A stretch of 64,000 nt of DNA, from assembly GCA_035327665.1 (NCBI GenBank), contig DAOLCW010000004.1, positions 2,598-66,597 of the forward strand, given 5' to 3'. The translations under genes and the position numbers were made by a program. How positions within the stretch are numbered: position 1 is the first letter of the stretch; each line of letters starts with the position of its first letter. Origin of the DNA: Kiritimatiellia bacterium (GTDB lineage: Bacteria; Verrucomicrobiota; Kiritimatiellia; CAIVKH01). Shown piece after piece: positions 23,607 through 62,384 of this stretch. The notes beneath the pieces were generated by a model that was given only the letters and a program-made list of their open reading frames with translations, was not told the DNA's origin and searched no databases.

Positions 23607-24137
23607 TTGCCCGAAATTAACCTCATGACCGCCCTTTCCGCCGCCGATCCATCCAAACCCGTCATCGTCTGGTTCCGCCGCGATCTCCGCCTCGCTGACC
23701 AACCCGCCCTTCACCATGCCCTCGCCACCGGCAAACCCGTAATCCCTCTTTTCATCTGGGCCCCCGAAGAGGAAGCTCCCTGGGCCCCCGGCGCCGCCTC
23801 ATGCTGGTGGCTTCACTACTCCCTCGCCACCCTCTCCCTCGACCTTCAAAAACTCGGCTCCCGCCTCATCCTCCGCCACCAGCCCTCCCTCGACGCCCTC
23901 ATCGAACTCATCGAAGAAACCCGCGCCGACACCCTCGTCTGGAACCGCCTCTATGAACCCGCCATCATCTCCCGCGATGCCGACATCAAGAAAACCCTTC
24001 GCGGACGCGGTGTTCAGGTCACATCCTACTCCTCCCACCTTCTCCACGAACCCTGGACCATCCTCAACCAGCAAGACAAACCCTACCAAGTCTTCACCCC
24101 CTTCTACCGCGCCACCCAAATCCACGGAAACCCCGAC
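23607..24137 (+). pseudogene. DNA photolyase/cryptochrome N-terminal domain only, truncated at poly-C tract
   Basis: VIVWFRRDLRLADQPALHHA...LVWNRLYEPAIISRDADIKKTL is the photolyase alpha/beta domain; downstream of the poly-C no FAD-binding domain motifs exist; the track ORF 23607..25148 reads through low-complexity DNA. Confidence 0.55.
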
Positions 24138-24138
24138 T

Positions 24139-24202
24139 CCCCCCTCCCCCCCCCCCCCCCCCCCCCCCCCCCGCCCCCCCGCCCCCCCCTCCCCCCCCCC
24201 CC
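24139..24202. repeat. poly-C homopolymer tract (27 uninterrupted C at 24146..24172; 64 nt with only 4 non-C)
   Basis: Read directly from sequence. Confidence 0.95.
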
Positions 24203-24264
24203 AACTCCGCCTCCAATGGACACGCCCCCCCCGCCGCGTCCATCCCGCCACCCCCCGCAACTTC

Positions 24265-24314: not shown

Positions 24315-24401
24315 CCCAATCCCCTTCGCCCCGGAACAACAACGCGCCCCCCCCGCGCAAACCACTCCGCACAAAGCACCAACCACCAAGCACTCCCTGC
24401 C

Positions 24402-24490
24402 CCACCTTGCCACCTTGCCACCTTGCCACCTTGCCACCTTGCCACCTTGCAACCTTGCCACCTTGCCACCTCCCCACCTCCCCACCCTCT
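24402..24490. repeat. tandem 8-bp repeat (ccaccttg) x about 8 perfect copies, then degenerating copies
   Basis: Read directly from sequence; not CRISPR-like (no spacers). Confidence 0.9.
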
Positions 24491-24491
24491 C

Positions 24492-24908
24492 TCACTCCAC
24501 CGCCAACAACTCCAGTCCTTGCTTCTTCAGGCCCACATCAAAAGAATAAACGCCGACGCGTTTTTGATCATGACACCACGCGGCGAGCCATGCATCAACC
24601 AGGTCATCCGCGCCGCTCTGCATCCGATCCAGGCAATCAAGCATCAGGTGCTTCTGCGTCATCTGGATACCTCGAAACGAAATCAGGCGGACGAGTTTTT
24701 CCGCCGCCACCGGGGCTGGAACCTCATAATGCGAAGTCAGCACGAAAATGGTTTGAAATACCACGAGGTCCGGCAAATGGACCGAAATTTCCGCCGCCTC
24801 GAGTTTGCCGAAAAAGGAAAACACCCCGCGGAACTTCGCAGGCATGGAGGCAGGCGTCTCGACCAGAAATCGGAGCAGGACGTTCGTGTCGATGGCATCA
24901 ACCGTCAC
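24492..24908 (-). CDS. vapC: PIN-domain toxin VapC
   Basis: VTVDAIDTNVLLRFLV N-terminal PIN motif; likely GTG start at 24908 overlapping antitoxin stop by 11 bp. Confidence 0.65.
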   Translation of the reverse strand: MTVDAIDTNVLLRFLVETPASMPAKFRGVFSFFGKLEAAEISVHLPDLVVFQTIFVLTSHYEVPAPVAAEKLVRLISFRGIQMTQKHLMLDCLDRMQSGADDLVDAWLAAWCHDQKRVGVYSFDVGLKKQGLELLAVE

Positions 24909-27635: not shown

Positions 27636-30600
27636 TCAAGCGACAGCCCACTCCGCGCAGAGCAATTCCGCCTGCATCAACACCGTCTTGACCGCTTCTT
27701 CCTGTAAATCCGGAGGATAGCCGTATTTGTTCAGGATGCGCTTCACCATCACCTTGATCTTGGCCCGGGCGCTCTCGCGCAAGGTCCAGTCAATGGTTAC
27801 ACTCTTGCGCACCTGAGTGATAAGTTCCGCCGCGATCACCCGCAATTTGGCGTCGCCCATCGCAACCACTGCGGATTCATTGGCGGCAAGCGCGTCGTAG
27901 AAGGCGACTTCGTCGTCGGTCAGCCCGAGGTCTTCGCCGCGTTTGGTCGCTGTGTCGAGGTCCTTGGCAAGCTTGATCAGCTCTTCGATGACCTGCATCG
28001 TGGAAATGGCCCGGTTGTGGTACGCATTAAGGGTCTTCTTGAGCTTTTCAGAAAAGACCTGGCTTTGTACGAGATTGCGCTTGGAGCGGACCTTGAGTTC
28101 GTCCTTGAGAAGCTTTTCCAGAAGCTCGGCGGCGACGTTCTTATGCTTGAGGCCGCGCACTTCGGCCAGAAATTGGTCGCTGAGGATGCTGATGTCCGGC
28201 TTGGGCAAGCCAGCCGCAGTGAACACGTCGATCACCTCGCCCTCGGTGGTGATGGCCTTGCTCGCGAGCTGGCGGATCGCCGCATCGATCTGCTCCGGCG
28301 TCTTCGTGCTGCCAGCGCTTTGCTTGTTGAGCGCGGCTTGCAGCGCTTGGAAAAAGCTTACGTCGTCGCGGATCTCCGTGGCTTCATCGCTGGCGGCACA
28401 AAGGGCAAAGGCGCGGGAAAGCTCCGTCACCACTTGTACCCAGCGTTTCTTGCCGTCGTCCTGAGCGAGGATATGCTCCTGTCCGGCGGGAAGGAGGGCA
28501 AGGCGCTCGGCGGGTTTGCCGGTGGTCCAATTGCGCCAATCGAACCCGTGCATGATATCGCACGCGATGCCGTGTTTCTCCAGCATCACGGCAATGGCCT
28601 GCCGGGTGTCATAGGTCGGATCGCCTTGCCCGCCACTTTCGGTGTACACCGCTAACGCGCGCTTCAGTTGGTCGGCGAGACCGAGGTAATCCACGACCAA
28701 CCCGCCCGGCTTGTCCCGGAACACCCGGTTGACCCGGGCAATGGCCTGCATCAGTCCGTGCCCCTGCATCGGCTTGTCTGCATACATCGTGTGCAGACAG
28801 GGCGCGTCAAAGCCGGTCAGCCACATATCGCGAACGATCACGATCTTGAACGGGTCCTTGGCATCCTTGAACCGGTTGGCCAACGCGCGCCGTTTGTCCT
28901 TGCTGCGGATATGCGGCTGCCAGTCCGGACCGTCCTCCGCACTGCCGGTCATCACAACCTTGAGTGTTTCCTCCTCCCACCCGGGACGGAGTTTGATCAG
29001 CGCATCGTAAAGATCCACGCAAATGCGGCGGCTCATGCAGACCACCATCGCCTTGCCGTCCATCGCCTCCAGCCGCTTCTCGAAATGCGCCACCAAATCG
29101 GCGGCAATCAGGGCGATGCGCTTCGGATCGCCCACCAACGCCTCCAGCGCCGCCCATTTGGTCTTCAGCTTCTCTTTCCGGGTCAGCTCCTCACCCTCGG
29201 TGATCGCCTCAAACTCCGCATCAAGCTTCGGCAACTCCGCCGCATTCAGGGACAACTTGGAAATCCGGCTCTCGTAATAAATTGGCACTGTCGCCTTGTC
29301 CGCCACCGCCCGCTGGATATCGTAAATGGAAATGTAATCGCCAAACACCGCCCGCGTGTTCGCATCGGTTTTCTCGATGGGCGTGCCGGTAAACCCGATA
29401 AAGGAGGCATGGGGCAAAGCATCCCGCATGTCACGGGCGAGACCATCGATGAGATCATACTGACTGCGATGCGCTTCATCGGCGATCACCACGATATTTC
29501 GCCGCGCGCTCAGCGCGTCATTACGGCCGCCCTTTTCCGCCAGGAACTTCTGAATGGTCGTGAAGACCACGCCACCACTGGCCACGGAAAGTAGATCCCG
29601 CAACTGTTCCCGGCTTTCGGCTTGAACCGGAGTTTGTCCGAGCATGTCATGGCAGCGCTGAAACTGGCCGAAAAGCTGATCATCGAGGTCGTTGCGGTCG
29701 GTCAGAACCACCAGGGTCGGATTCCGCATCGCCGGATGCCGGATCACCCGCGCCGCGTAGAACAGCATGGATAAACTTTTCCCGCTGCCCTGGGTATGCC
29801 ACACCACCCCCGCCCGACGGTCGCCCGGCTTGCCCCCGTGCATCGCCCTCGCCCACGAGGCGCCCATCGGATCGCGAACCGGCTCACCCACCGCGAGGTC
29901 GGCCGCCCGGAGTGTTTCCTGAACCGCAATCGTGACCGCGTGGAATTGATGATAACCCGCGATGATCTTATGGACCTCCCCGGAATCGGGATTCTCCTCA
30001 AACGCGATGAAATGTAGCAGCAGCTTGAGAAAGCGTTCCCGCTCGAAGACACCATAAATCAGGGTTTGGAGTTCGAGCGTGGCCTTGGGTCGCTGCTGCC
30101 CCTCATCCCCGGCCCTTCTCCCGGTGGAAGAAGGGAGATGTGATCCGATTTCCTGTAGAACGGCGTCTGTGTCATTCAAGACACGTTCGTTCGCGAACCG
30201 GACAACCGTCAGTCCCTGCGACCTGAGATAAGCATCCCGTTTGCCGTCGTGCTTCGAGCGTGCCGCTTCGGAATGCGGTTCGCCATCGCATTCCACGACC
30301 AGTTTTGCTTCGTGGCAGAAGAAATCACAGATGTATTCACCGAACTGGTGCTGCCGCCGGAATTTCGCCCCCATCAACTGACGATCACGCAGCAACTCCC
30401 AGAGTGCATCCTCTGCGGGAGTTTGATTCAGTCTCAACGCCCTCGCTTTGTCCGTCATTCCGGCAAAATCGAGCCCTCCGCGATAATGTTCACTCCCTCT
30501 CCCCCTGGGAGAGGGCTGGGGTGAGGGTGGAGGCGAGCCATCCGGCTCCCTCCATACCTTAAACCACTCCTGATTCGCGGTCAGTGACCCGATCCGGGCC

Positions 30601-31196
30601 TGCAAGCCATCGCTGATCACCAGCACCGCGTTGTACTGAAGCATTGACGAAATCTCGGCTTTGTAGGTTCGAATCTGGGCGTAAGCATCCCAGATCGTGG
30701 TGTCCTCATCCGCCGCGTTCTTTAACTCGATCAAACCCAAGGGCAAACCGTTCACGAAGACGATGAGGTCCGGTCGCCGGTTGTGTTGCCCCTCAATCAC
30801 TGTGAATTGGTTCACAACGAACCAGTCGTTCGCCAGCACATCCGTAAAGTCGATCAGCCAGGCCTTGTCGTGTTTGATGCTGCCATCAGGTCGGGCATAC
30901 TCAACATCCACCCCGTCGCGCAGCAACTTGTGAAACGCCCGGTTCGTCTGCACGAGCGACGGAGTCGCCAACCGCAAAACTTTCCGCAACGCCTCCTCCC
31001 GCGCCTCCCCGGGAACATCTGGATTCAAACGCCCGATCGCCTCACGCAGACGCCCCACCAAAACCACGTCCCCAAATCCATTCCGCTCCGAGGACGCTTC
31101 ACCCGGCGCAAGTTGCGGCCCGTGCCCGGTCGCATAGCCAAGATCCCCGAACCATTCGAGGGCGGCGTCTTCGACGATGGATTCGTTGAGGGTCAT
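27636..31196 (-). CDS. hsdR: type I restriction enzyme R subunit HsdR carrying an in-frame DUF559 (Vsr-like endonuclease) domain insertion
   Basis: N-terminal PD-(D/E)xK ([12 protein letters not shown]), helicase Walker A (TQGSGKS), DEAH (IADEAH), C-terminal HsdR domain; insertion ...[30 protein letters not shown]...[15 protein letters not shown] is DUF559-like. Confidence 0.9.
30098..30140. repeat. REP/MITE-like palindromic element, copy d (in hsdR)
   Basis: gcccctcatccccggcccttctcccggtggaagaaggg; imperfect inverted repeat cccttctccc/ggaagaaggg. Confidence 0.6.
30493..30535. repeat. REP/MITE-like palindromic element, copy c (in hsdR, opposite orientation)
   Basis: ccctctccccctgggagagggctggggtgagggtgg; palindrome ccctctcccc/gggagaggg. 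Confidence 0.6.
31157..31190. repeat. 34-bp direct repeat, copy 1 (hsdR start region)
   Basis: cgagggcggcgtcttcgacgatggattcgttgag identical to 32358..32391. Confidence 0.9.
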
Positions 31197-32260
31197 GGTT
31201 GGTCGCGCTCCGGCGGCAATTCTTTGAGCAAACGATCAAAGTCCGACTCGAACAACCGGTCCTGCACGATGCGGTATTTCTCGAATTCGCTCTCCGCGTG
31301 TGCTTGGGCGATTTCGGCGGTGACTTTGCCGGCATCGTGCAGGATTTCGCGGTCAGTCGCGGCAATGAAGCGGTTGAGGCGGGTTTCCCAGTCCTGCATG
31401 GTCATGGGAATCTCACGCAGCGCCATGTCCTCGGCAATATCCAAGTAGGCGGAAACGAGCCGCTGGAGCTGCTCCATTTCGTTTTCCGTCAGGTAGTTCT
31501 TTGCCACAACCACATCGAACTTCTGGATTTTACCTTTGGGCGCGTCCTTCCAGGTGGTCAGGCCCATGCGGTCTTTCGCTGCATCGGCGCGAGCGACGAT
31601 GACCTCGGCTGCCGTCTGGCCGTGGATGGCCCAGTGGAGCTTGTTCTGTACGGTGGCGAAGAAACGCTGCGTGGCGATGGCAGTGACGTCGTAATCGATG
31701 GAGGTCGCGTAAATATCCGTGATCTTCTGGTAGAACTTGCGCTCGCTTAGACGTATTTCGCGGATGCGTTGGAGTTGTTCCTCGAAGTATTTTTTGCCGA
31801 GGATCGAGCCGTCGTTCTTGAGACGCTCGTCATCCATCGCGTAGCCCTTGATGGTGAAGGATTCGATGATGCCGGTGGCCCACTTGCGGAACTGCACGGC
31901 ACGCTCCGAGTTCACCTTGTAGCCGACCGCGATGATGGCGGAGAGATTGTAGTGCTGGGTGTCGTAGGTTTTGCCGTCGGCGGCAGTTATTCGAAAATTT
32001 CGAATAACTGAACCGGCCTCCAGTTCGGCGTCGTCGAAGACCTTTTTGAGGTGGTAATTGATCGTGTGCGTCTCCACGTCGTAGAGCAGCCCCATCATCT
32101 TCTGGCTGAGCCAGACATTCTCATCGGAGTAAACCGCCTCGACGCCACCCTGCCCGCTGGCCGCCACAAAGGTCAGGTATTCCGCCGCCGAGGAGCGGAC
32201 GAGCGAGACTTCGTCCTTCTTCTTGGCGCGACCGCCCGGGGTGGGTTTCTTTTTACTCAC
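31193..32260 (-). CDS. rhuM: RhuM family virulence-like protein (common type I RM accessory gene)
   Basis: [15 protein letters not shown]...[43 protein letters not shown] matches RhuM; GTG start at 32260; stop overlaps hsdR start. Confidence 0.8.
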
Positions 32261-32317
32261 GGGTTTGTCCTCCTCGCGATTTGAACTCTTCGAGATTGCC
32301 GAATGGTTGCCCGCGAC

Positions 32318-32348
32318 TCCTCGGAAAGGGCCGGGGTGAGGGATGCCA
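32318..32348. repeat. partial REP/MITE-like element, copy e
   Basis: gggccggggtgaggg is the reverse complement of the ccctcaccccggccc arm of copies a and d. Confidence 0.45.
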
Positions 32349-32397
32349 CAGGCATTACGAGGGCGGCGTCTTCGACGATGGATTCGTTGAGTTTCAT
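32341..32397 (-). pseudogene. hsdR 5' remnant (first ~13 codons [13 protein letters not shown]) displaced by cassette insertion
   Basis: Compare hsdR N-terminus [16 protein letters not shown]; the remnant diverges after EDAAL into a REP-like element. Confidence 0.5.
32358..32391. repeat. 34-bp direct repeat, copy 2 (hsdR 5' remnant)
   Basis: Identical to 31157..31190; encodes [13 protein letters not shown] on minus strand. Confidence 0.9.
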
Positions 32398-33230
32398 TTG
32401 TCTTTCAACCACACCAGCGCTTCGGGGTGCGCCTTCCACGCCATGCCCAGAACATCGGCAAAACACACTGCCTCCTCCTTGCTGCCTGAAGCATAGAAGG
32501 AAGGCAGGATTCTCGGCAGACGTTTTCCCAGCAAATACGCCTCAACGTGGGCATTTTGCTTACGGGCGGTATTGATGGCCTTGGCTGCGGCTTTGAAGTC
32601 ATCCCGCAGCCACAAATCCAGAACCTTGCCCCAGGCAAAAACCATACTCAGCTTGGCTTCGTTGTATTGTTTGAACAGGCGCGCGGTTTGTTGAAGCCGC
32701 TTGAGAGCGAGCAGGGTCGGCAATAGATAATAGCGCAATCCCTGATTGTCGTTGGGATTCAACTCCAGAAGGGCCGTCCATTCCGCTGCAGCCTCTTCAA
32801 GATTGCCGGACCGGCGCAACGCTTCGGCCAAATCCGCCCGCGCCCGCATGTAGGGACGTGTTTCCATGAATCCCCAAAAGCTGCCTTTCAGATGCAAAAA
32901 CACCTCCGGCCCCAACTGGTGGGCAGCCAGCTCTACCAGCTTGCGCAGGACGTCAATGCGCTGCCTGATTGAAAGACCAAGATCGTGAAGCAAGACCAGC
33001 CAGGCATCAACATGGGTCGGATCCAGTTCCAAGGCATTTTCCAACATTGCGTTCTGATCCTCATTCGAACGCGCCTCCATCGCGTCGTAATACAGTTCAC
33101 GCGATGCCTCGCTCAACGGACGCGCCGGTTCGCCCAACGCCCGATCCAGCGTTTTGATGATCCCGGCAAAACTGTACCGGTTCCCCCCGTTGCCAAGCCC
33201 CCCCTCAATCACACGTAGTTGCATTATCAA
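32394..33230 (-). CDS. hypothetical all-helical (TPR-like) protein embedded in type I RM locus
   Basis: 278-aa ORF, good codon usage, no family recognised; stop overlaps ATG of hsdR remnant (ATGA). Confidence 0.5.
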   Translation of the reverse strand: MIMQLRVIEGGLGNGGNRYSFAGIIKTLDRALGEPARPLSEASRELYYDAMEARSNEDQNAMLENALELDPTHVDAWLVLLHDLGLSIRQRIDVLRKLVELAAHQLGPEVFLHLKGSFWGFMETRPYMRARADLAEALRRSGNLEEAAAEWTALLELNPNDNQGLRYYLLPTLLALKRLQQTARLFKQYNEAKLSMVFAWGKVLDLWLRDDFKAAAKAINTARKQNAHVEAYLLGKRLPRILPSFYASGSKEEAVCFADVLGMAWKAHPEALVWLKDK

Positions 33231-33351
33231 GACTCCTCATTTGCGGATAATCGATTAGCGATCAGCGTGGCAGAACTCATAACCATCTTTGTCCCTTCAG
33301 ACTTCAGGGAAGATTAGTACAGATTGCGGTGTTCGACCATTAAGAAGGTAC

Positions 33352-34773
33352 TCATGCCGGAACCTCCTTTTCGACCTCCGCCACACTCAACTCCCCGCTC
33401 AGCAGCTTCGGCAACAACGTGTCGCGCAGGGTGGCGAGGGTGCGGGATTGGTGGAGGTTGGCATGGATGCGGTCGAGCATTGGTTGAATGATCCGCGTGA
33501 AGGCGGCGGCGATGGGTTTCGACGGCACGGCGACCTTGAAGGAACTGATGTCGCTCCAGTTCGTTCGCGGCATCTTGGTTCCAGTGGATGCGAGATCGGT
33601 GAATTGAATCAGTTCGTCGCTGCTTGCGTGGCCGAGGAGGAACCCGAACCACTCGGGGCTTTTCGGTGCGAGGACGAGGATGTCGGTGGAGCATACGCCA
33701 TCGAACGGGGCGACGCCGACTTTGTGGAAGTAAGGCCGCAGCTTGCCGAAGAGGATTTCGCCTTTATTGAACGCGGACTTGCCGCTCGCCACGTCGGCGG
33801 AGTCGTCCCAATCGCCGAGCGCGATGCAGCGACGCGGCATGTGTTCCAAGGCGATGTAGGGCGTGTTCGGTGCGATGTCGCCGGGCTGGACGCCGCGCCG
33901 CGAGTTCGTGCCGATGTCACCGACTGTTCCCACCGTCCATCCTTTGGGAATGTAACCGAGGGGTGAGTCTTCCAAGTGCTCGGGAAAGAGGGCGGCGATG
34001 GCGGGGTCTAGCGCGAAGCGCCCCTCTTCCCCGCCCCTTCTCCCACTGGGAGAAGGGTGGCCGGCAGGCCGGGTTGAGGGTTGATTCCGATCCATGTTCC
34101 GCCGAACTGGATCGAAATCAATAAACCAGCTCTGGAACAGCGCCCGCGCCATCCCCTCCAGCGTCTCGTTCATCCGCCGGTTCAACTCGATATTGTCATC
34201 GAGCGTGCCGAGTATGTGGGCGATGCGTTTTTGGATGGGGAGGGGTGGGAGTGTGAGCGGTGTGTTGCGAAGAATACCAAGGTTAGTGTGTGGAACGCCG
34301 GTTTGGATCGCATTCTGTCGAATGTAATCCTGCTGCTCCGCGCTGGTGAAGACGTAGTAGAGAAACACGGTATCTGCCTTCTCGGCATCGACCGTGAGCT
34401 TCATCTGGCTCTGAGAAATCAGGTATCTGTCCACGCCCTTCTTTGGCACTATGGCGACTTGGCCAAGCGTGCCGCGTTGAGTGAAAACTATGTCTCCGGG
34501 TTTCGCGCAGTTTGAGGAAAGAGATTCGGCCTTCTCTGGCGTGACATAAGCGAACTCGCCATCGACCCAACGGCCATGGCCCATGTTCGTTCCGCGAATG
34601 ACGGGGACTCCCGCAGGCACATAGTCTTTTGAGACCAAGTCAGAGCCGAACGGACCGCCGACGAGCGCATTTCGAGTCTTTACGGCGAGTTCGCCGACGG
34701 TGCAGTCAATGAACGCTTCAGTCGCCATACCCCAGCCCCCTTCCTCCTGCGCACTGCTCGCTATAGCGAGCAT
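33352..34773 (-). CDS. hsdS: type I restriction-modification specificity subunit HsdS (with in-frame palindromic-element insertion in central conserved region)
   Basis: Two TRD halves, central conserved LPPLPIQKRIAHILGTLDDNIELNRRMNETLE and C-terminal LPKLLSGEL repeats; extra segment NQPSTRPAGHPSPSGRRGGEEGRF coincides with element copy b. Confidence 0.82.
   Translation of the reverse strand: MLAIASSAQEEGGWGMATEAFIDCTVGELAVKTRNALVGGPFGSDLVSKDYVPAGVPVIRGTNMGHGRWVDGEFAYVTPEKAESLSSNCAKPGDIVFTQRGTLGQVAIVPKKGVDRYLISQSQMKLTVDAEKADTVFLYYVFTSAEQQDYIRQNAIQTGVPHTNLGILRNTPLTLPPLPIQKRIAHILGTLDDNIELNRRMNETLEGMARALFQSWFIDFDPVRRNMDRNQPSTRPAGHPSPSGRRGGEEGRFALDPAIAALFPEHLEDSPLGYIPKGWTVGTVGDIGTNSRRGVQPGDIAPNTPYIALEHMPRRCIALGDWDDSADVASGKSAFNKGEILFGKLRPYFHKVGVAPFDGVCSTDILVLAPKSPEWFGFLLGHASSDELIQFTDLASTGTKMPRTNWSDISSFKVAVPSKPIAAAFTRIIQPMLDRIHANLHQSRTLATLRDTLLPKLLSGELSVAEVEKEVPA
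34017..34085. repeat. REP/MITE-like palindromic element, copy b (in hsdS)
   Basis: agcgcccctcttccccgccccttctcccactgggagaagggtggccggcaggccggg; palindrome cccttctccc/gggagaaggg. Confidence 0.6.
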
Positions 34774-34929
34774 GCCGGTTTGCTTTGCTAGGTTGCTCCA
34801 GCCTTACATCCCCGGCGAGCCGGGTCGCAGGGGTCGCCTGTGTCCCATGGGACCGGTGCGACCCGGGGGACGGTTTGGGGCTGGGTGAGTCAGGGGGCGA
34901 CAGGGTCTTGAGTGAACTTCCGGGGGATT

Positions 34930-35586
34930 TCACGGGGGGCTTCTCCGGCTTTGCTTGGCCCGGGCTTGAAGGCGGGCCCGGGTCATGCGTTCGCGGAGAC
35001 CGCCTTCCTTCAAAAAATCCTGTTCGAGGCGACGGAGCTGCCGGTCGATCAGGTAATTGGCCTGGTTGATGAGGCAGATCAGGATATTGGCCACGGTTTC
35101 ACCGGGCCGGGTCTCGATAAACTCCCGGAAATGATCATACTTCAGATCATCGCGGGCGCTGAGCTTGCGCACATACAGCGCTTCCTTGCTGTTCTTGTCC
35201 CACGGGGTCAAATCCTGGTGAATCAGAAAATCCTCATAATCACCCAGCAACTCTTCCAAGCTCCCCCTCGCCACCGACGTCAGCTTAATCTCCGATTCTT
35301 TCGATGTCCCCGAAACCTGGCTCGCCTCGGCAATATTTTTGTTCCCGCTCCGCGCCGCCTGCACCATCTGGTCATGCGTCCGCGACCGTCGGCTGATAAA
35401 CCTGTCGCAGAACACCTTCGTCGCCCGGTAAATCACCTCCGTTTTCCGGTATCCGTGCAGATTGGCATACCCCCCATGCGGCGGGATAAACCCTTCTTCC
35501 GGCTCATCCCGGCTCCCGCGCGGCGATCGCCGCGCCCGATCCGTCCCCCGCGTCCCCCGGGTCCCATTCTCCCCGGAATCAGCCAT
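34930..35586 (-). CDS. four-helix-bundle protein (TIGR02436-like; frequent type I RM locus passenger)
   Basis: [12 protein letters not shown] and [16 protein letters not shown] match the family; overlaps hsdM stop by 8 bp. Confidence 0.65.
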
Positions 35587-37270
35587 ACCCCAACCCCTTC
35601 AAATTTTCCCGGATCGCTGCCTCCAGCCTCGCCGATTCCGCAAACTGTCCATCCAGCTCGGTCACCAGCCGCTTCATCTTCACCTCAAACGGCTCCCCGT
35701 CGTCCTCGACCGCTTCCGCTCCGACATACCGGCCCGGAGTAAGCACATAGCCATGCGCGGCAATTTCGGCGGTGGTGGCGGACTTGCAAAAACCCGGCGT
35801 ATCGGAATAGGACAAATGGGACGCGTGGGACCGATCCCCACGCCAGGCATGGTAGGTCGCTGTGATCTTTTCCAGATCGGCATCGGTCAGTTCTCGGTGG
35901 ACCCGGTCGATCAGCGTGCCGAGTTTGCGGGCGTCGATGAATAGCGTTTGCTTCCTTCGGTCGCGCAAACGCCCCTCACCCCCAGCCCCTCTCCCACTGG
36001 GAGAGAGTTTCCCGCCTGATTTGTCGCGGGAAATAAACCAGAGGCAGACGGGAATCTGCGTGCTGTAAAAAAGCTGTCCCGGCAAGGCGACCATGCAGTC
36101 CACGAGGTCGGCTTCGATCAGAGCTTTGCGGATCTCGCCTTCGCCGGACTGGTTCGAGGACATGCTCCCGTTGGCGAGAACGAAGCCGGCCATGCCCTGC
36201 GGCGCGAGGTGGTGGATGAAGTGTTGGACCCAGGCAAAGTTCGCGTTGCCCTTGGGCGGGACGCCATACAGCCAGCGCACGTCGTCGTCCTTGCGGAACC
36301 AGTCGGAATCGTTGAACGGCGGATTGGCGAGCACATAGTCGGCGCGGAGGTCGGGGTGGAGATCGCGGCGGAAGGTGTCGGCGTGTTCGGGACCGAAGTC
36401 GGCCTCGATCCCGCGGATGGCGAGGTTCATGATCGCGAGGCGCCGCGTGGTGGCATTGCTCTCCTGCCCGTAAATGCTAATGTCCCCCACCCGCCCACCG
36501 TGGGACTCCACAAACTTCTCCGACTGCACGAACATCCCGCCCGACCCGCAGCAGGGGTCATAGATGCGTCCCTTGTAAGGCGCCAGCATTTCCACCAGGC
36601 AGCGCACCACGCAACTTGGGGTATAGAACTGTCCCCCGTTCTTGCCTTCGGCCGAAGCGAAGCGGGTCAGAAAATACTCATAGACCCGGCCGAGCAAATC
36701 CACCGAACGGTGCGAGGGCAACGGAGCGGTTTCCAGGACCCCGGCCGCCTCACCGGCCCCGAGGTCGGGTGGGAGGTCGGCCTTGGCCACATCCACGCCG
36801 TCCGAGGACGGAACAAGGGTGATGGTCCCGATCAAATCAATCAACTCTCCCAAGCGATGCTTATCCAGGGCCGGACGCGCGTAATCTTTGGGGAGGACGC
36901 CCTTGAGGCGCGGATTGTCCCGTTCAATGGCAACCATGGCGTCGTCGACGATTTTGCCGATGGTCGGCTGCTTGGCGCTGTTCTGGAGGTATGACCACCG
37001 GGCGGCGGGCGGCACCCAAAACACATTCTCCGCCTTGTATTCGTCCTGATCTTCCGGATCAGCCCCCTCGTAGTCGCCCTTCCCCAACAGCAGTTTAGCC
37101 CGATGCTCCTCGAACGAATCGGAGATGTACTTCAGGAAGATCAACCCCAGCACCACATGCTTGTACTCCGCCGCGTCCATATTGTTGCGGAGCTTGTCAG
37201 CGGCAAGCCAAAGCTTGGCCTCGAAACCGATGGTAGCCGTCGATTTTTCAGTTTTGCGTTTAGCGGCCAT
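35579..37270 (-). CDS. hsdM: type I restriction-modification DNA methyltransferase subunit HsdM (with in-frame palindromic-element insertion)
   Basis: HsdM N-domain ([13 protein letters not shown]), NPPFN catalytic motif, AdoMet motif (DPCCGSGGM); extra [18 protein letters not shown] before [10 protein letters not shown] coincides with element copy a. Confidence 0.9.
35968..36012. repeat. REP/MITE-like palindromic element, copy a (in hsdM)
   Basis: aacgcccctcacccccagcccctctcccactgggagagagtttcccgcc; palindrome cctctccc/gggagag. Confidence 0.6.
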
Positions 37271-57569: not shown

Positions 57570-60500
57570 TCACATTCCCGGCTTTACCCTGTCAATGATC
57601 TTGAGACCGTGATCCCCTACCACAACGGCCTCAGTAGCAGCAGGATCGGGAAGGCTGAAATAGATTCCGGTTCCATGATCGTCCCAGAACGTTTCGGCGC
57701 CGAAGAGAAGCACAGGAGCCATCGGTCTGGAGATATCGAGTACCCAGGCATTGCCGGTGGTGAGACCGCTGACAAAATATTGGGAGAATGCGGGAGAAAC
57801 GGGGATCCTCAACCATTGGTCATTCCCCATCGAACCGACCCAGGTTTGTCCATCCGACCATGTCGGCCCGGCATAATCTTCGAGCATATGCACAGGATCA
57901 TCCATTTCCGTCAATGCGACCTCGGCACCTGATCCGATCGAAGCATCCACGTAAAAGAGAATCGCATCGTTGGGCCGAAGGGAGGCGCCCCACGCGAGAA
58001 TATAGGCCGCCACCGGCTCGTCCCCGACAAGGACTTGAAGGCGGGAAGGCGAAACCGCCGTGAGTTCGATTCCGGCATTGGCAAGCGTGCGCGCAGGAAG
58101 CACGTACAGCCCGGATTCCTTGACGTTAAGCGAGGCAATCACCCCGGCACGGGCAGCGGCAAGGCTAACCCTGACTGGACCATGACGCTTGGTCGTCATG
58201 TCGAATTCGATATCATCCAACCAGTAGTAATAGGTCTGGCCGGACTCAACATCTTTATCCAACCAGGCGTAAGCCTGTCCTTCACCCGTTCCCATTCCAT
58301 CGATCAATCCCTGAGTGATGCGCACCGGCGAACCGTTTACATCTCCTGCCCGGTACAGATGGAAGCCCAGGTTGTTCAACTCGGCAGCGGTTTCCCATTC
58401 AAGCAGGATCCCCTCCTCAGTCGGAGTGCCGGTGAAGGAAACCAGTTCCACCGCCGTAGGACTAGCGGGGAAGAATCCGAAATCGGCATCAAGAAAAATG
58501 CCCGAGGGTGGGATCGGCGGAATAGTATACCGAAGCGGAGTGGTCGGGATCAACGGCACCGGAGGCAAGCCCGGGAAGCCACCCCCCGGCGGATTGGCCG
58601 AAGGAACGGAGGACAAATCGACTTCCACCACATAATTCGCAAACGGCAGGTTGGTGAAGATATAGTATCCGCGCCAGTTGGTATTGGAGAAGGTAACCGT
58701 GGTTGCCACAAGGTTGGTTATCCCCCCGGTCACATCCAGCAACCGGATGGTCACTCCGTTTAATCCTTGCACGGCGAGGTTTTCATCGGGAATCCCATTG
58801 CCGTTGAGATCGAGCCAAACCGTATCGCCTATGGTCAGCGTCATGATTTCGTAGGGAACATCATTGGTCCGGGGAGGAACGGGAGGCTCATCCGGAGGCG
58901 TGGTGGGACGGGCAACTACGGCATTGGTCTCCGGAGCCACCGTGACTTGTAGCGCGGTGAAGGTGACCACGACACCGGTCGATGCACCCGGTGGCAGCGG
59001 ACCTATATTATCCCAGGCCAACGCACCGGGAGCGGGATCGCTGGGCGGAGGGGTGGCTGTGCTAAAGGCAAAATAGGCTGGGTCATAGAGGTCCTCAAGG
59101 GGAACGGTGACAAGAACCACGTCCCCGGTGTTCACGACGCTCAAAGAGAATACAACCGGCTCTCCAACAACCGCAGGACGACCGAGCGGGGATACCAGCG
59201 TCTTGATCAGGTCATAGCCGGGATTGCTGACCCGGTAAGGCACGTCATTGGTTTGCGGCGGAACCGGAGGCTCATCGGGAGGTGTAGTCGGAGCAGCAAC
59301 CACCCGGTTGGTTTCCGACGCGCCGACCGTACTCGCCAATGCGATTGTATTGACAACGATCGAAGTCGAAGCCCCTGCCGGTAAGGGTCCGACATTGTTC
59401 CACACCAGGCTCCCGGGCAGGGAATTGTTAACCGGGGGAACCGAACTGACGAATTCGAGGATCGCCGAATTGTAGAAGTCAACTAGAGGCACGGTGACCA
59501 GATCGACATCTCCATTGTTTTGGACGGTCAGACTGAATTGGATCGCTTCTCCAACTTCAGCAGCACGTCCGACCGGGGATATAACCGATTTGGTCAACAG
59601 GTAACTCGGATCGCTGATCCGGAAGGGGGTTTCATTGGTTCGGGGAGGTACGGGAGGGAATTCCGGAGGCGTGGTCGGAGTGGCAACAACCGTATTGGTC
59701 CGGTTTTCGCCCACCGTGCTTCCAATTGCGGTAAAATTGACCACCACTGAGGTTGTCGCGCCGGGATTCAAGGGGCCAAGGTTCACCCAGCCGACCAATC
59801 CCGGGGCCACATTGTTCGCCGGGGGTACCGAACTGGCAAATTCGAGGAGGGAAGCATCGAAGGTATCCACCAGCGGAATGGTGACAAGGACCACATCGCC
59901 GGTGTTGATCACCGAGAGACTGAATTGGAGCGGTTCCCCCAGCGCGGCGGCCCGGCCTACGGGTGAAATCAACGTCTTTATCAAAGCATACCCGGGGTTG
60001 CTGATCTGATAGGGCACCTCATTGGTGCGGGGCGGAACCGGCGGCTGACCCGGGGGAGTGGTCGGGGCGGCAACCACGCGGTTGGTTCGATCCCCTCCTC
60101 CTGAACTTGCCACTGCGGTGAATTGGACAATCACCGAGGTGGATGCCCCTGCAGGCAAGGGACCGAGATTGTTCCAGACGAGGCTTCCGGCAACCGAGGC
60201 GTCCGGAGCGGGCACGGCATTATTAAATAGCAGGAAGGCCGGCTCAAAGGTGTCGGTAAGTGGCACCGTAACCAGGGTGACATCCCCGGTATTGACTACG
60301 GTCAGCGTGAATTGAAGGGTCTCCCCCACTTCGGCGGACCGGCCAATCGGCGCATCGAGGGTCTTGGACAAACCATACCCGGGATTGCTGATTTCGTAAG
60401 GAACCTCGTTGGTCTGAGGTGGGACCGGCGGCTGATCGGGAGGGGTGGTGGGCGAAGCCACGACAAGGTTGGTTTCGGCAAAACCATCGGTTGTGGCCAG

Positions 60501-62384
60501 TGCGGTAAAGGTGACGACAATCGAGGTACTGGAACCGACCGGGAGAGGGCCAATGTCATTCCAGGTCAAGACACCGGGGGCAATATCGTCAGCCGGAGGC
60601 ACCGCTGATTCATACCCGAGAAACGCGGGCAGGAAGGTGTCCTGAACCGGAACCGTGACCAACGAAACATCGCCCGTGTTTTCGATGTTGAGCGAAAACT
60701 GGATCGGTTCGCCCACCGCAGCCGCCCGTCCCAAGGGAGAGAGAATCGTTTTGGTCAGCAGAAAGCCGGGATTGCTGATTTCGTAGGGGACATCGTTGGT
60801 TTGCGGGGGAACCGGGGGAAGCTCGGGCGGTGTGGTCGGAGTCGCCACGACGGTGTTGGTCTCCGAAAATCCATCTGTGCTGGCCAGGGCCGTGAAGGTC
60901 ACAACCACGGATGTACTGGCGCCGGGAATCAACGATCCCAAATCATTCCAAACCAGTACGCCTCCACCGACGCTATCTGCGGAAGGACTCGCGGACTGGA
61001 AATCGAGGAACGATGAATCATAGGTATCAATCAGGGGAACCGTAACCAAGGGGACATCGCCGGTGTTCAGAACCGAAATACTAAATACAATATCTTCCCC
61101 TACCCCGGCCGCACGGCCGGAGGGACTGATGACCGACTTGATCAGGCCGAAGCCGGGATTACGAATCTCATACGGCGCGTCATTGGTTTGAGGAGGTGTC
61201 CCCGGCACATTGGGAGGAGTGGTGGGAGAGGCCACAACCCGGTTGGTTTGGGCATTGGGGGAACTTGCCACTGCGGTAAACGTCACGACGAGGCTGGTGC
61301 TTGCCCCGATCGGTAAGGGACCCACATTCGCCCAGTTGATGATTCCATCGTTGACCGTATCGATGGTGGGCGGGACTGCGCCGACAAAGGCAAGGAAAGA
61401 GGTATCATAGGTGTCTTCAACCGGGACGGTGACAAATCCGACATCACCGGTGTTCTCGATGGTGATGGTGAATACAATCGATTCGCCAATCGCGGCAGCC
61501 CGCCCCTCTGGCTCGGTCACGTCCTTTTCCAGGGTAAATCCCGGCGTGACCACGATGACCACCGCATCGTCTTCCGCCGTGACGGGGTCGAAATCACCAA
61601 GCAAGTCGCAGGTCTTGAAGTCGATCACCAACGCCTCTACAAACGCGATGTTGGTCACGCTCGCATTGATCACCGTCTGGGTGGTAAAAACAATGACGTC
61701 ACCAGGGGCCATAAATTCCGGGTTTTCGGGATCGAAGCAGTTGGCCAACTCCACCACATCGTCCCCCCCTTCCGGAAATAAAACGTCGTCAAACAACCCG
61801 ATAAAGGAAAGATGCACATTCCCGGTATTGGTAACGATGTACGTATAGGTAACGATGGTACCATTGGTAACGAACAGAGGCTCCCCGTCCGGGGCGTCAT
61901 TGGCGAGCTTGGTTAGGGAAATTCCGGGCTGGAGTTGGAAGAAGCCTGCATCGAGATTTTCCACCGGTGTTCCGTCAAAAACAAACGGCGGCGTCTGGCC
62001 CGCCGAGTTGATGTCGCTGTCCAAGGTGGGATCTCCTCCTGCATTGTTGGTCGTGATGCTGAAGGTGGAAGGCGGGAAAAACCGGAGAAAATACGACCCG
62101 TTTGCGACATCGGTGAAGATGTAAATCCCATCCGCATCGGTGACCACACCTTCGACAATGTTGGAGGAGGGAAATTCGAACAACTGAACGACAACGTTGG
62201 AGATACCCGGCTCCCCGACATCTTGTATCCCGTTGACATTGAGATCGTTCCATGCAAACCCCGTAATGAAGTTAGCGTGGGCGGAGGCCGAGAACAAAAG
62301 GCCGCTGACAAGGATCATCGACGTTAGCCATGGAGAGGTCAATCTCTGCCCATCAATCATGGAGATACACTTTCTTGACTTCAT
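57570..62384 (-). CDS. giant secreted surface protein: SdrD B-like (Cna-B type) domains flanking at least 7 tandem DUF11-type repeats, unique C-terminal region
   Basis: ATG at 62384 with signal peptide (MKSRKCISMIDGQRLTSPWLTSMILVSGLLFSASAHA); NGIQDVGEPGISNVVVQLF...DADGIYIF and NGNGIPDENLAVQGLNGVTIRLL SdrD-B-like modules; repeats with NTGDVxLVTVPL...PTTPPxxPPVPPxTN. Confidence 0.8.
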   Translation of the reverse strand: MKSRKCISMIDGQRLTSPWLTSMILVSGLLFSASAHANFITGFAWNDLNVNGIQDVGEPGISNVVVQLFEFPSSNIVEGVVTDADGIYIFTDVANGSYFLRFFPPSTFSITTNNAGGDPTLDSDINSAGQTPPFVFDGTPVENLDAGFFQLQPGISLTKLANDAPDGEPLFVTNGTIVTYTYIVTNTGNVHLSFIGLFDDVLFPEGGDDVVELANCFDPENPEFMAPGDVIVFTTQTVINASVTNIAFVEALVIDFKTCDLLGDFDPVTAEDDAVVIVVTPGFTLEKDVTEPEGRAAAIGESIVFTITIENTGDVGFVTVPVEDTYDTSFLAFVGAVPPTIDTVNDGIINWANVGPLPIGASTSLVVTFTAVASSPNAQTNRVVASPTTPPNVPGTPPQTNDAPYEIRNPGFGLIKSVISPSGRAAGVGEDIVFSISVLNTGDVPLVTVPLIDTYDSSFLDFQSASPSADSVGGGVLVWNDLGSLIPGASTSVVVTFTALASTDGFSETNTVVATPTTPPELPPVPPQTNDVPYEISNPGFLLTKTILSPLGRAAAVGEPIQFSLNIENTGDVSLVTVPVQDTFLPAFLGYESAVPPADDIAPGVLTWNDIGPLPVGSSTSIVVTFTALATTDGFAETNLVVASPTTPPDQPPVPPQTNEVPYEISNPGYGLSKTLDAPIGRSAEVGETLQFTLTVVNTGDVTLVTVPLTDTFEPAFLLFNNAVPAPDASVAGSLVWNNLGPLPAGASTSVIVQFTAVASSGGGDRTNRVVAAPTTPPGQPPVPPRTNEVPYQISNPGYALIKTLISPVGRAAALGEPLQFSLSVINTGDVVLVTIPLVDTFDASLLEFASSVPPANNVAPGLVGWVNLGPLNPGATTSVVVNFTAIGSTVGENRTNTVVATPTTPPEFPPVPPRTNETPFRISDPSYLLTKSVISPVGRAAEVGEAIQFSLTVQNNGDVDLVTVPLVDFYNSAILEFVSSVPPVNNSLPGSLVWNNVGPLPAGASTSIVVNTIALASTVGASETNRVVAAPTTPPDEPPVPPQTNDVPYRVSNPGYDLIKTLVSPLGRPAVVGEPVVFSLSVVNTGDVVLVTVPLEDLYDPAYFAFSTATPPPSDPAPGALAWDNIGPLPPGASTGVVVTFTALQVTVAPETNAVVARPTTPPDEPPVPPRTNDVPYEIMTLTIGDTVWLDLNGNGIPDENLAVQGLNGVTIRLLDVTGGITNLVATTVTFSNTNWRGYYIFTNLPFANYVVEVDLSSVPSANPPGGGFPGLPPVPLIPTTPLRYTIPPIPPSGIFLDADFGFFPASPTAVELVSFTGTPTEEGILLEWETAAELNNLGFHLYRAGDVNGSPVRITQGLIDGMGTGEGQAYAWLDKDVESGQTYYYWLDDIEFDMTTKRHGPVRVSLAAARAGVIASLNVKESGLYVLPARTLANAGIELTAVSPSRLQVLVGDEPVAAYILAWGASLRPNDAILFYVDASIGSGAEVALTEMDDPVHMLEDYAGPTWSDGQTWVGSMGNDQWLRIPVSPAFSQYFVSGLTTGNAWVLDISRPMAPVLLFGAETFWDDHGTGIYFSLPDPAATEAVVVGDHGLKIIDRVKPGM
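58655..61550 (-). repeat. tandem ~115-aa (about 345-bp) DUF11-like coding repeats, at least 7 copies, diverged at DNA level
   Basis: Periodic recurrence of ...NPGxxLxKxxxSPxGRAAxVGExIxF...NTGDVxLVTVPLxDT...TNxVVAxPTTPPxxPPVPPxTNxVPY in the translated product. Confidence 0.6.

Follow-up and report, generated by a model that had tools for sequence, protein, structure and literature searches.

A type I restriction-modification (RM) locus in a 64-kb stretch of contig DAOLCW010000004.1 from a Kiritimatiellia bacterium (hereafter the window) carries an in-frame cassette inside hsdR, in which an open reading frame (ORF) for a DUF559 domain, a predicted nuclease, is bounded by two inverted copies of the palindromic BoxC repeat. 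Solo copies of the repeat lie in frame in hsdS and hsdM. Among homologous genes the cassette is polymorphic, being present, absent or internally deleted at three or more sites in HsdR, three or more in HsdM and in the central linker of HsdS. We lean, with modest confidence, towards the view that it is a selfish, homing-like element moving among RM genes, and that the solo copies are its remnants. The repeat family is already known; here it takes the form of an in-frame, BoxC-bounded DUF559 cassette that, together with its remnants, colonizes RM genes and appears to move between alleles, and no description of such a cassette was found in the searchable literature.

A first-pass annotation of the window had reported five GC-rich palindromic copies here, and the repeat and profile analyses place all five at the same positions. 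It also held that the coding copies preserve the frame, which is borne out in that the hsdR, hsdS and hsdM ORFs read through them and yield the peptides it had quoted; four of the five are translated as part of intact ORFs. The inserts are additions rather than native linkers, as it had supposed, since orthologues up to 97% identical lack them, and the comparison with insert-free RM loci that it had suggested turned up empty orthologues of HsdR, HsdS and HsdM alike. Overlooked at that stage was a DUF559 domain encoded by the ~360 nt that separate the two hsdR copies. The annotation's reading of the copies as inserted members of a REP/MITE-like family holds only in part, because the hsdR pair forms the ends of the DUF559 cassette and the hsdS and hsdM copies are better explained as deletion remnants.

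The cassette translates as part of HsdR, giving a peptide arm, the DUF559 domain and a second peptide arm, and it sits after the HSDR_N nuclease domain and before the SWI2/SNF2 motor (Pfam order: HSDR_N, aa 3-211; DUF559, 248-353; SWI2_SNF2, 416-674; T1RH-like_C, 854-1181). In a DNA alignment the block at 30093-30536 is missing from the empty alleles of the related loci L001, L006 and L008. Across HsdR homologues the cassette has a constant protein layout of PSPQPSPSGRGS or PSPPTPLPxGEGS, then (E)HYRGGFDFxGL, DUF559 and a 14-residue segment. Two reading frames are in use for the left arm among these proteins, and it is therefore the DNA that is conserved, not the peptide. Housing in an intein or intron was considered and rejected: the ORF is continuous, Pfam finds no Hint or intein domain in HsdR, and the junction residues (GS/PPP ... 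QQR/PK, slashes marking the junctions) are not intein-like.

The DUF559 match (PF04480) scores 119.5 bits against a cut-off of 20.6 (E 7.6e-35). In the PDB, the module matches by sequence only 3hrl, a DUF559 protein (E 5.5e-20), and Foldseek on the module returns 3hrl (E 1e-8), 3r3p (E 5e-5, prob 1.0, TM 0.76) and, more weakly, 1vsr; 3r3p is the catalytic domain of the homing endonuclease I-Bth0305I. The families VSR, DUF559 and DUF2726 make up one clade, which includes a group I intron homing endonuclease (Steczkiewicz et al. 2012). The DF...E.DG..H motif has invariant D, E, D, G and H residues in two DUF559 alignments. An AlphaFold2 (AF2) model has a predicted local distance difference test (pLDDT) score above 90 for the core and of 50-70 for the BoxC-encoded flanks, and the Pro/Ser/Gly/Arg-rich arm segments fit flexible linkers in this model.

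The nuclease core is under purifying selection, with a ratio of nonsynonymous to synonymous rates (dN/dS) of 0.07-0.13, as is the host hsdR (dN/dS ~0.09-0.2 between two filled alleles). The arms have a dS of 0.11-0.15 against 0.5-1.7 nearby, an approximately tenfold lower synonymous rate that points to constraint or homogenization at the DNA level.

Occupied and empty sites in host genes

Among 120 HsdR homologues (73-100% identical to the HsdR of the window), the same cassette occurs at three places, at reference positions ~100, ~220 and ~408, and cargo-less forms with one or both arms occur at these three and at ~136. Full and solo copies number 6 and 6 at site ~100, 0 and 13 at ~136, 17 and 12 at ~220, and 27 and 4 at ~408, and two full copies occur together in one homologue, P0002. 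At site ~100 the flanks are common to solo and full copies. Many homologues are empty; these are 1039-1055 aa long, do not contain DUF559 and read ...EWFKVWRTIDGEGDAPKTALELE... at the cassette position, and the empty site in L006 hsdR reads ...TGGCGCACGATTGATGGTGAGGGCGACGCCCCGAAG.... Outside the cassette, filled and empty alleles can be 94-97% identical. Occupancy is scattered on the host-gene tree (constructed with the sites masked), with at least 10-18 state changes per site. Each insertion site has its own DUF559 lineage, the nearest neighbour of a DUF559 sequence being found at the same insertion site in 48 of 50 cases. Microhomology to BoxC at the empty HsdR sites was examined as a candidate and rejected, as the four sites were no better than 27-88% of gene positions.

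The flanks of the cassette were compared in a DNA alignment of eight hsdR alleles. L005, filled at ~220 and with a solo copy at ~100, matches the empty L006 at 92-98% identity along most of hsdR, but from ~60 nt upstream to ~90 nt downstream of the cassette this identity drops to 0.67-0.77, and identity of L005 to the filled allele of the window climbs to 0.91-0.95 over the same stretch. The L005 filled allele is a mosaic whose immediate flanks derive from a distant filled allele. Such a pattern would be expected of a cassette that is copied in together with short co-converted flanks.

The solo copies in hsdS and hsdM occupy sites at which homologues carry the full cassette. HsdS of the window is ~20 residues longer than its empty orthologues at L005, L006 and L007, reading DFDPVRRNMDRNQPSTRPAGHPSPSGRRGGEEGRFALDPAIAALFPEHLEDS where these read DFDPVRAKLDGRPPAALDPATAALFPEHLEDS. 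A full DUF559 cassette lies at the same linker in 33 representative HsdS proteins, and the window HsdS shares their 5' flank (RRNM..NQPS; RRNxARxxxQNQPSP-type). Its solo copy is composite, consisting of an outer arm, a small GGCC hairpin, the main hairpin and another outer arm, and has a folding energy as DNA of -23 kcal/mol (z -3.4); one of the hsdR arms, that at 30098-30136, is also predicted to fold as a hairpin. HsdM of the window has a 13-aa insert relative to the empty L001, L006 and L007; at the same site L002 has a longer solo copy and the fragment P0185 a full DUF559 cassette. Across 120 HsdM homologues, BoxC-type peptides occur at three hot spots, which coincide with the full-cassette sites in P0124, P0185 and P0147. 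Because they share both sites and flanks with full cassettes in homologues, the hsdS and hsdM solo copies are probably remnants of the cassette after internal deletion. Each arm is itself a palindrome, and the inverted arms would therefore also provide direct repeats for slippage or recombination.

Hosts beyond these loci are of the same kind. A phmmer search with the module against 1.84 billion cluster representatives gave 24,755 matches at E up to 1e-3. By Pfam, the 76 best matches of at least 280 aa include 39 proteins with Methylase_S, 12 with N6_Mtase, 6 with Eco57I, 5 with MmeI_Mtase, 4 with HSDR_N, 1 with Type ISP, 1 with N6_N4_Mtase and few with non-RM families (a single protein can match several families). 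Seeded with the DUF559 core alone, a scan of metagenomes recovered 80 loci with 83 DUF559 copies, among them 37 in HsdR, 17 in HsdM, 1 in HsdS and 22 free-standing; none in these loci was embedded in a non-RM gene. At the DNA level, 53 of the 57 RM-hosted copies are in frame at the visible junctions (48 on both sides, 5 at a contig edge), and 4 have a frame break.

These hosts, nearly all of them RM or defence methylase proteins, would also suit a domesticated accessory nuclease domain carried on BoxC-encoded linkers, with its patchiness due to ordinary domain shuffling and recombination among RM genes. The purifying selection on the core, the intact and constrained host ORFs and the linker-like, low-confidence flanks in the model agree with this explanation as well. 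We nevertheless consider it unlikely. The module takes at least three alternative positions in HsdR and is also found in HsdM and HsdS, subunits with different jobs, and it is missing from alleles that are 94-97% identical. The nuclease has often been deleted and the arms alone left, HsdR has kept its own PD-(D/E)XK motif (PDLIVF...IELK), and in 22 of 79 close relatives DUF559 is free-standing and BoxC-flanked, with no RM gene nearby. Moreover, synonymous sites in the arms are conserved, and a peptide linker would not call for this.

The two hsdR arms form inverted repeats of ~36 nt, and could in principle act as an invertible switch, in which inversion would bring stop codons into frame and switch restriction off while methylation goes on. 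Each of three modelled inversions would lead to a stop about 40 codons in and truncate HsdR, and 'DUF559 domain-containing protein' is enriched 14-fold among predicted targets of programmed inversion (Milman et al. 2023, PMC9881135), an enrichment that may merely reflect the inverted BoxC pair. However, indels and several mismatches separate the two arms, no inverted partner exists for the single copies in hsdS and hsdM, and a Pfam scan of the six locus proteins found no match to a recombinase or invertase family. Phase variation of this kind is improbable, and the suggestion in the first-pass annotation that the repeats might phase-vary restriction gains nothing from the sequence: there is no recombinase, no simple-sequence tract and only one hsdS at the locus. 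The repeat search, which left out 1-3-nt runs, listed no tandem repeats inside the hsd genes.

BoxC and its link to a DUF559 subfamily

The window repeats are assigned, from their sequence, to the elements known as BoxC, PIT or the TMECO intrastrand-triplex motif (Bachellier et al.; Hoyne & Maher 2000; Holder et al. 2015, PMC4666352). They consist of a 9-10-nt pyrimidine block and two purine blocks and would be capable of forming a hairpin or intrastrand triplex. BoxC has been described since the 1990s, some 30 years ago, and the published TMECO pattern is CCCTCNCCC N3-6 GGGNGAGGG N3 GGGNGAGGG (PMC4666352). That study counted 3610 copies across 262 proteobacterial genomes and, in E. coli K-12, 23 copies, all intergenic and often arranged as inverted pairs. 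E. coli copies form triplexes in vitro by circular dichroism and nuclear magnetic resonance, and BoxC is associated with local rearrangement, deletion and genome instability; no function, origin, partner protein or mobile-element link was found for it (PMC4666352).

The strict TMECO pattern has a single match in the window, at 30495-30527, against 0.00 expected by chance, and this copy is nearly identical to E. coli TMECO no. 1. The other window copies have the same three-block layout in variant form, with 10-nt blocks, a longer second loop or truncation. The window copies share with those of E. coli the three-block sequence, the occurrence in inverted pairs and the tie to local rearrangement and deletion. 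They differ in lying within genes and in frame, in being limited to RM genes and in pairing around a nuclease ORF, where the E. coli repeat has no associated gene or mobile element, and three of the five are variants that miss the strict pattern. In a scan of a genome collection, the exact arm pattern occurred in at least 120 stretches across many phyla; the matches listed include Pseudomonas, Enterobacter, Xanthomonas, Variovorax, Myxococcota, Planctomycetota, Verrucomicrobiota, Chloroflexota and others. TMECO copies number 1-29 among E. coli strains, and Salmonella lacks the motif. No Rfam family matched the 27-38 kb part of the window at E up to 1.

The association with DUF559 was evident in the metagenome loci. 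BoxC lies within 400 nt of DUF559 in 80 of the 83 copies, and on both sides in 66, at stereotyped distances: one arm precedes the core by ~45-60 nt and the other follows it by 11 nt. Close to the DUF559 gene there are 2.2 BoxC per kb, compared with 0.21 per kb elsewhere. Free-standing DUF559 genes, which have no RM gene nearby, carry the arms in the opposite orientation, sometimes in tandem arrays. A control set of 80 viral loci containing distant DUF559 genes (30-50% identity) gave 11 profile matches in 366 kb, and only one locus was BoxC-flanked. Most of the distant DUF559 genes on plasmids are likewise without BoxC. Since distant DUF559 genes mostly lack the repeat, the association is specific to this subfamily.

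Two further cases come from E. coli and Synechocystis. In E. coli K-12 (NC_000913.3), a BoxC/TMECO copy at ~1351203-1351241 lies in the fabI-ycjD spacer, ~165 nt downstream of ycjD, which is the only DUF559 gene in the examined region and whose product is 45% identical to the module. With 23 copies spread over 4.6 Mb, the chance of a BoxC near ycjD is ~0.002-0.004. Plasmids of Synechocystis sp. B12 (CP101712.1, 33900-37217; CP101716.1, 13718-17053) carry DUF559 genes with BoxC-like arms on both sides, one arm being only weakly matched. These genes adjoin a short DUF1156 methylase fragment and lie directly upstream of the BREX gene pglX, and it looks as if the insertions split defence methylase genes.

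The linkage in 80 of 83 copies, whether free-standing or embedded, together with the Synechocystis plasmids and the BoxC at ycjD, hints that this DUF559 subfamily may be the dedicated protein partner of BoxC, much as RAYT is for REP. The BoxC-DUF559-BoxC unit would then be autonomous, the thousands of solo copies in bacterial genomes would be its non-autonomous copies or footprints, and the translated, RM-embedded cassette would be a lineage specialized for defence genes. We regard this as possible but doubtful, and mobilization of solo BoxC by DUF559 is a hypothesis.

The first-pass annotation had proposed a family of REP elements or miniature inverted-repeat transposable elements (MITEs). 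The repeat is indeed a real and known one, but over the sequence covered its copies look confined rather than dispersed: in 128 kb of the window and related loci, all 12 strong sites lie inside RM genes, which make up 18% of this sequence. The window has its five copies at one locus, as judged from 64 kb of this genome, and the remaining ~54 kb holds no further copy. Independent BoxC insertions mobilized in trans, of which frame-preserving ones survived and between two of which DUF559 was merely caught, would sit well with the dispersal of the repeat in very many genomes and with the frequent inverted pairs in E. coli (PMC4666352). The element lacks stop codons in two of its three reading frames, and a few BoxC copies do occur in frame, without DUF559, in unrelated genes (GH31, radical SAM and asparagine synthase). 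Such insertions do not, however, account for arms at stereotyped DUF559 distances in 66 of 83 copies, for the restriction of strong sites to RM genes, or for solo copies that share sites and altered flanks with full cassettes. We therefore consider this quite unlikely. The RAYT/TnpA(REP) transposase that the first-pass annotation had suggested seeking did not appear, in that none of the six locus proteins scanned matches a Y1 or RAYT family.

A proposed homing-like element without intron or intein

For the selfish, homing-like element that we favour, nuclease-driven homing would be the most economical mechanism, to judge from the sequence comparisons. Recombinational repair or gene conversion would copy the cassette into homologous RM genes that are empty, and the simplest trigger would be a cut at the empty site by the DUF559 nuclease. 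The frame would be kept through copying of a pre-adapted cassette along with its flanks and through selection against hosts with a broken RM gene. The solo copies in hsdS and hsdM would have been left after recombination or slippage between the palindromic arms removed the nuclease.

Several points weigh against this reading. The nuclease activity of the module and its target are putative. Clear co-conversion is seen in one allele pair only; the pair at site 408, L007 and L008, has only short divergent flanks, with no close donor in hand. The hsdR alignment contains no recognizable target-site duplication, the flanks of filled alleles being replaced and not duplicated, and no target motif shared by the empty sites was found. 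The same mosaics could arise without a nuclease, through general recombination among RM alleles that are widely transferred, and the strong purifying selection on DUF559 also fits a domain that benefits the host. For the solo copies, independent insertion of BoxC is possible because of the few in-frame BoxC copies in unrelated genes and the weak link from the repeat side. Among the 133 BoxC matches listed from 120 genome loci, one has DUF559 nearby (within 170 nt) and one lies in an RM ORF; a reverse association, from BoxC to DUF559, was rejected on this count, and the link is one-way.

The nearest known systems each resemble the cassette in part. With I-Bth0305I (3r3p), of the Vsr/DUF559 clade, it shares the catalytic fold. 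As with homing endonuclease genes, it has defined sites in conserved hosts, presence/absence polymorphism, site-specific lineages and co-converted flanks. Unlike these, it has no intron or intein and is translated into the host protein, has no separate DNA-binding domain and ends in a widespread repeat, and cleavage of the empty site is an inference. Rickettsia palindromic elements, which Ogata et al. reportedly described in 2000, are short selfish palindromes lying in frame in coding genes, their peptides being tolerated. The cassette is unrelated to them in sequence, and the Rickettsia elements are not known to carry a nuclease cargo or to be limited to one functional class of host gene. REP/REPIN elements are palindromic repeats with a rare partner gene, RAYT, that is recognized by the inverted repeat copies flanking it. 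BoxC is similar in being an orphan-looking palindromic family with a rare protein partner flanked by inverted copies, but this partner is a PD-(D/E)XK nuclease of the Vsr fold rather than a Y1 transposase, and the window copies are intragenic. Compared with MITEs, inverted ends are present but no target-site duplication is recognizable, and the full unit encodes a protein.

The RM locus, its neighbours and the significance of the cassette

The six genes of the locus are all on the minus strand (Table 1). HsdR and HsdM of the window are 100% identical to NCBI entries, that for HsdR being from a Kiritimatiellia metagenome-assembled genome. GC content of the RM locus is 0.58-0.60, the same as in the remaining window, and a foreign-island signature was therefore rejected.

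Table 1. Genes, cassette parts and repeat copies at the RM locus, in window coordinates. The nhmmer profile was made from the window and L002 copies, and the E-values of 1e-9 to 3e-9 on variant copies are partly circular.
Feature	Position	Strand	Remarks
hsdR	27636-31196	-	1186 aa, intact ORF; hosts the cassette
In-frame cassette (BoxC arm, DUF559 ORF, inverted BoxC arm)	30093-30536	-	~444 nt, 148 codons
BoxC-variant arm, C-terminal side of hsdR cassette	30098-30136	-	10-nt blocks; nhmmer E 1e-9; 13-residue peptide
DUF559 core	30138-30455	-	Predicted Vsr-like PD-(D/E)XK nuclease; PF04480; HsdR aa 248-353
BoxC arm, N-terminal side of hsdR cassette	30493-30531	+	nhmmer E 5.5e-9; encodes 12-residue peptide
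rhuM	31193-32260	-	
Truncated BoxC upstream of rhuM	32318-32348	+	Right half only
TPR ORF	32394-33230	-	
hsdS	33352-34773	-	473 aa; Methylase_S by Pfam; solo BoxC in central linker
Solo composite BoxC in hsdS	34017-34085	-	nhmmer E 1.4e-9; encodes STRPAGHPSPSGRRGGEEGRF
ORF with weak 23S_rRNA_IVP likeness	34930-35586	-	
hsdM	35579-37270	-	563 aa; HsdM_N and N6_Mtase by Pfam; hosts solo BoxC
Solo BoxC in hsdM	35968-36012	-	Without outer left arm; nhmmer E 3.2e-9; 13-residue peptide

The truncated BoxC copy holds the exact 15-mer GGGCCGGGGTGAGGG at 32328-32342, for which 0.06 matches are expected by chance. It lies between rhuM and an orphan 40-nt stretch (32358-32397) that duplicates the hsdR 5' end (31157-31196) at 95% identity and is also upstream of rhuM; the TPR ORF ends in a stop codon that overlaps the ATG of the orphan. 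Because of the orphan 5' end, the truncated BoxC and the overlap of stop codon and ATG, the locus appears to have arisen by recombination between a [TPR-hsdR] and a [rhuM-hsdR] arrangement, with BoxC where the two meet.

The ORF between hsdM and hsdS (218 aa) matches PF05635 at E 1e-5, below the cut-off. It is flanked by a 33-nt inverted repeat (34847-34879 and 35535-35567, 82% complementary) and may be another small inserted unit. Within hsdM, an optional 25-aa segment at 36690-36790 (HsdM aa ~160-185) is present in ~38 of 120 close homologues and occupies the same loop that in others holds BoxC peptides or a full DUF559 cassette. The possibility that it is a decayed BoxC was rejected, as it is a conserved optional segment and not BoxC.

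HsdM proteins ~80% identical to that of the window (homologues P0336-P0455) come from Cyanobacteria, Beta- and Gammaproteobacteria, Desulfovibrionales and Verrucomicrobia. Between hsdS/hsdM and hsdR, the related loci L001, L002 and L005-L008 differ in their accessory genes, which include RhuM (twice in L005), Fic, AAA/SMC-like ATPases, DUF2290 with a UvrD-like helicase, and a nucleotidyltransferase pair. The varied accessory genes and the spread of HsdM point to wide horizontal transfer and to a cargo hot spot at the RM locus.

Elsewhere in the window, a very long C-rich/poly-C run (24122-24220) is followed after 170 nt by ~10 tandem copies of the octamer CCACCTTG (24386-24497). GC skew is unusually strongly negative, at -0.25 to -0.39, across 1-28 kb. 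At 58844-61252, a ~387-nt unit is repeated in seven tandem copies that are 63-74% identical and probably encode a repeated domain of a large protein.

The cassette bears on the biology of both the repeat and its hosts. A nuclease gene that is nearly always bracketed by BoxC provides a concrete candidate partner for a repeat with no known origin, partner or function. The cassette also represents a way of living inside a gene that needs neither intron nor intein, with linker-encoding ends of its own and translation as part of the host protein. It explains many overlong HsdR, HsdM and HsdS proteins, and 'DUF559' or 'very-short-patch-repair endonuclease' calls within metagenomic RM genes. Given that its hosts are nearly all RM or defence methylase genes, the cassette may affect the diversification, recombination and decay of defence systems.

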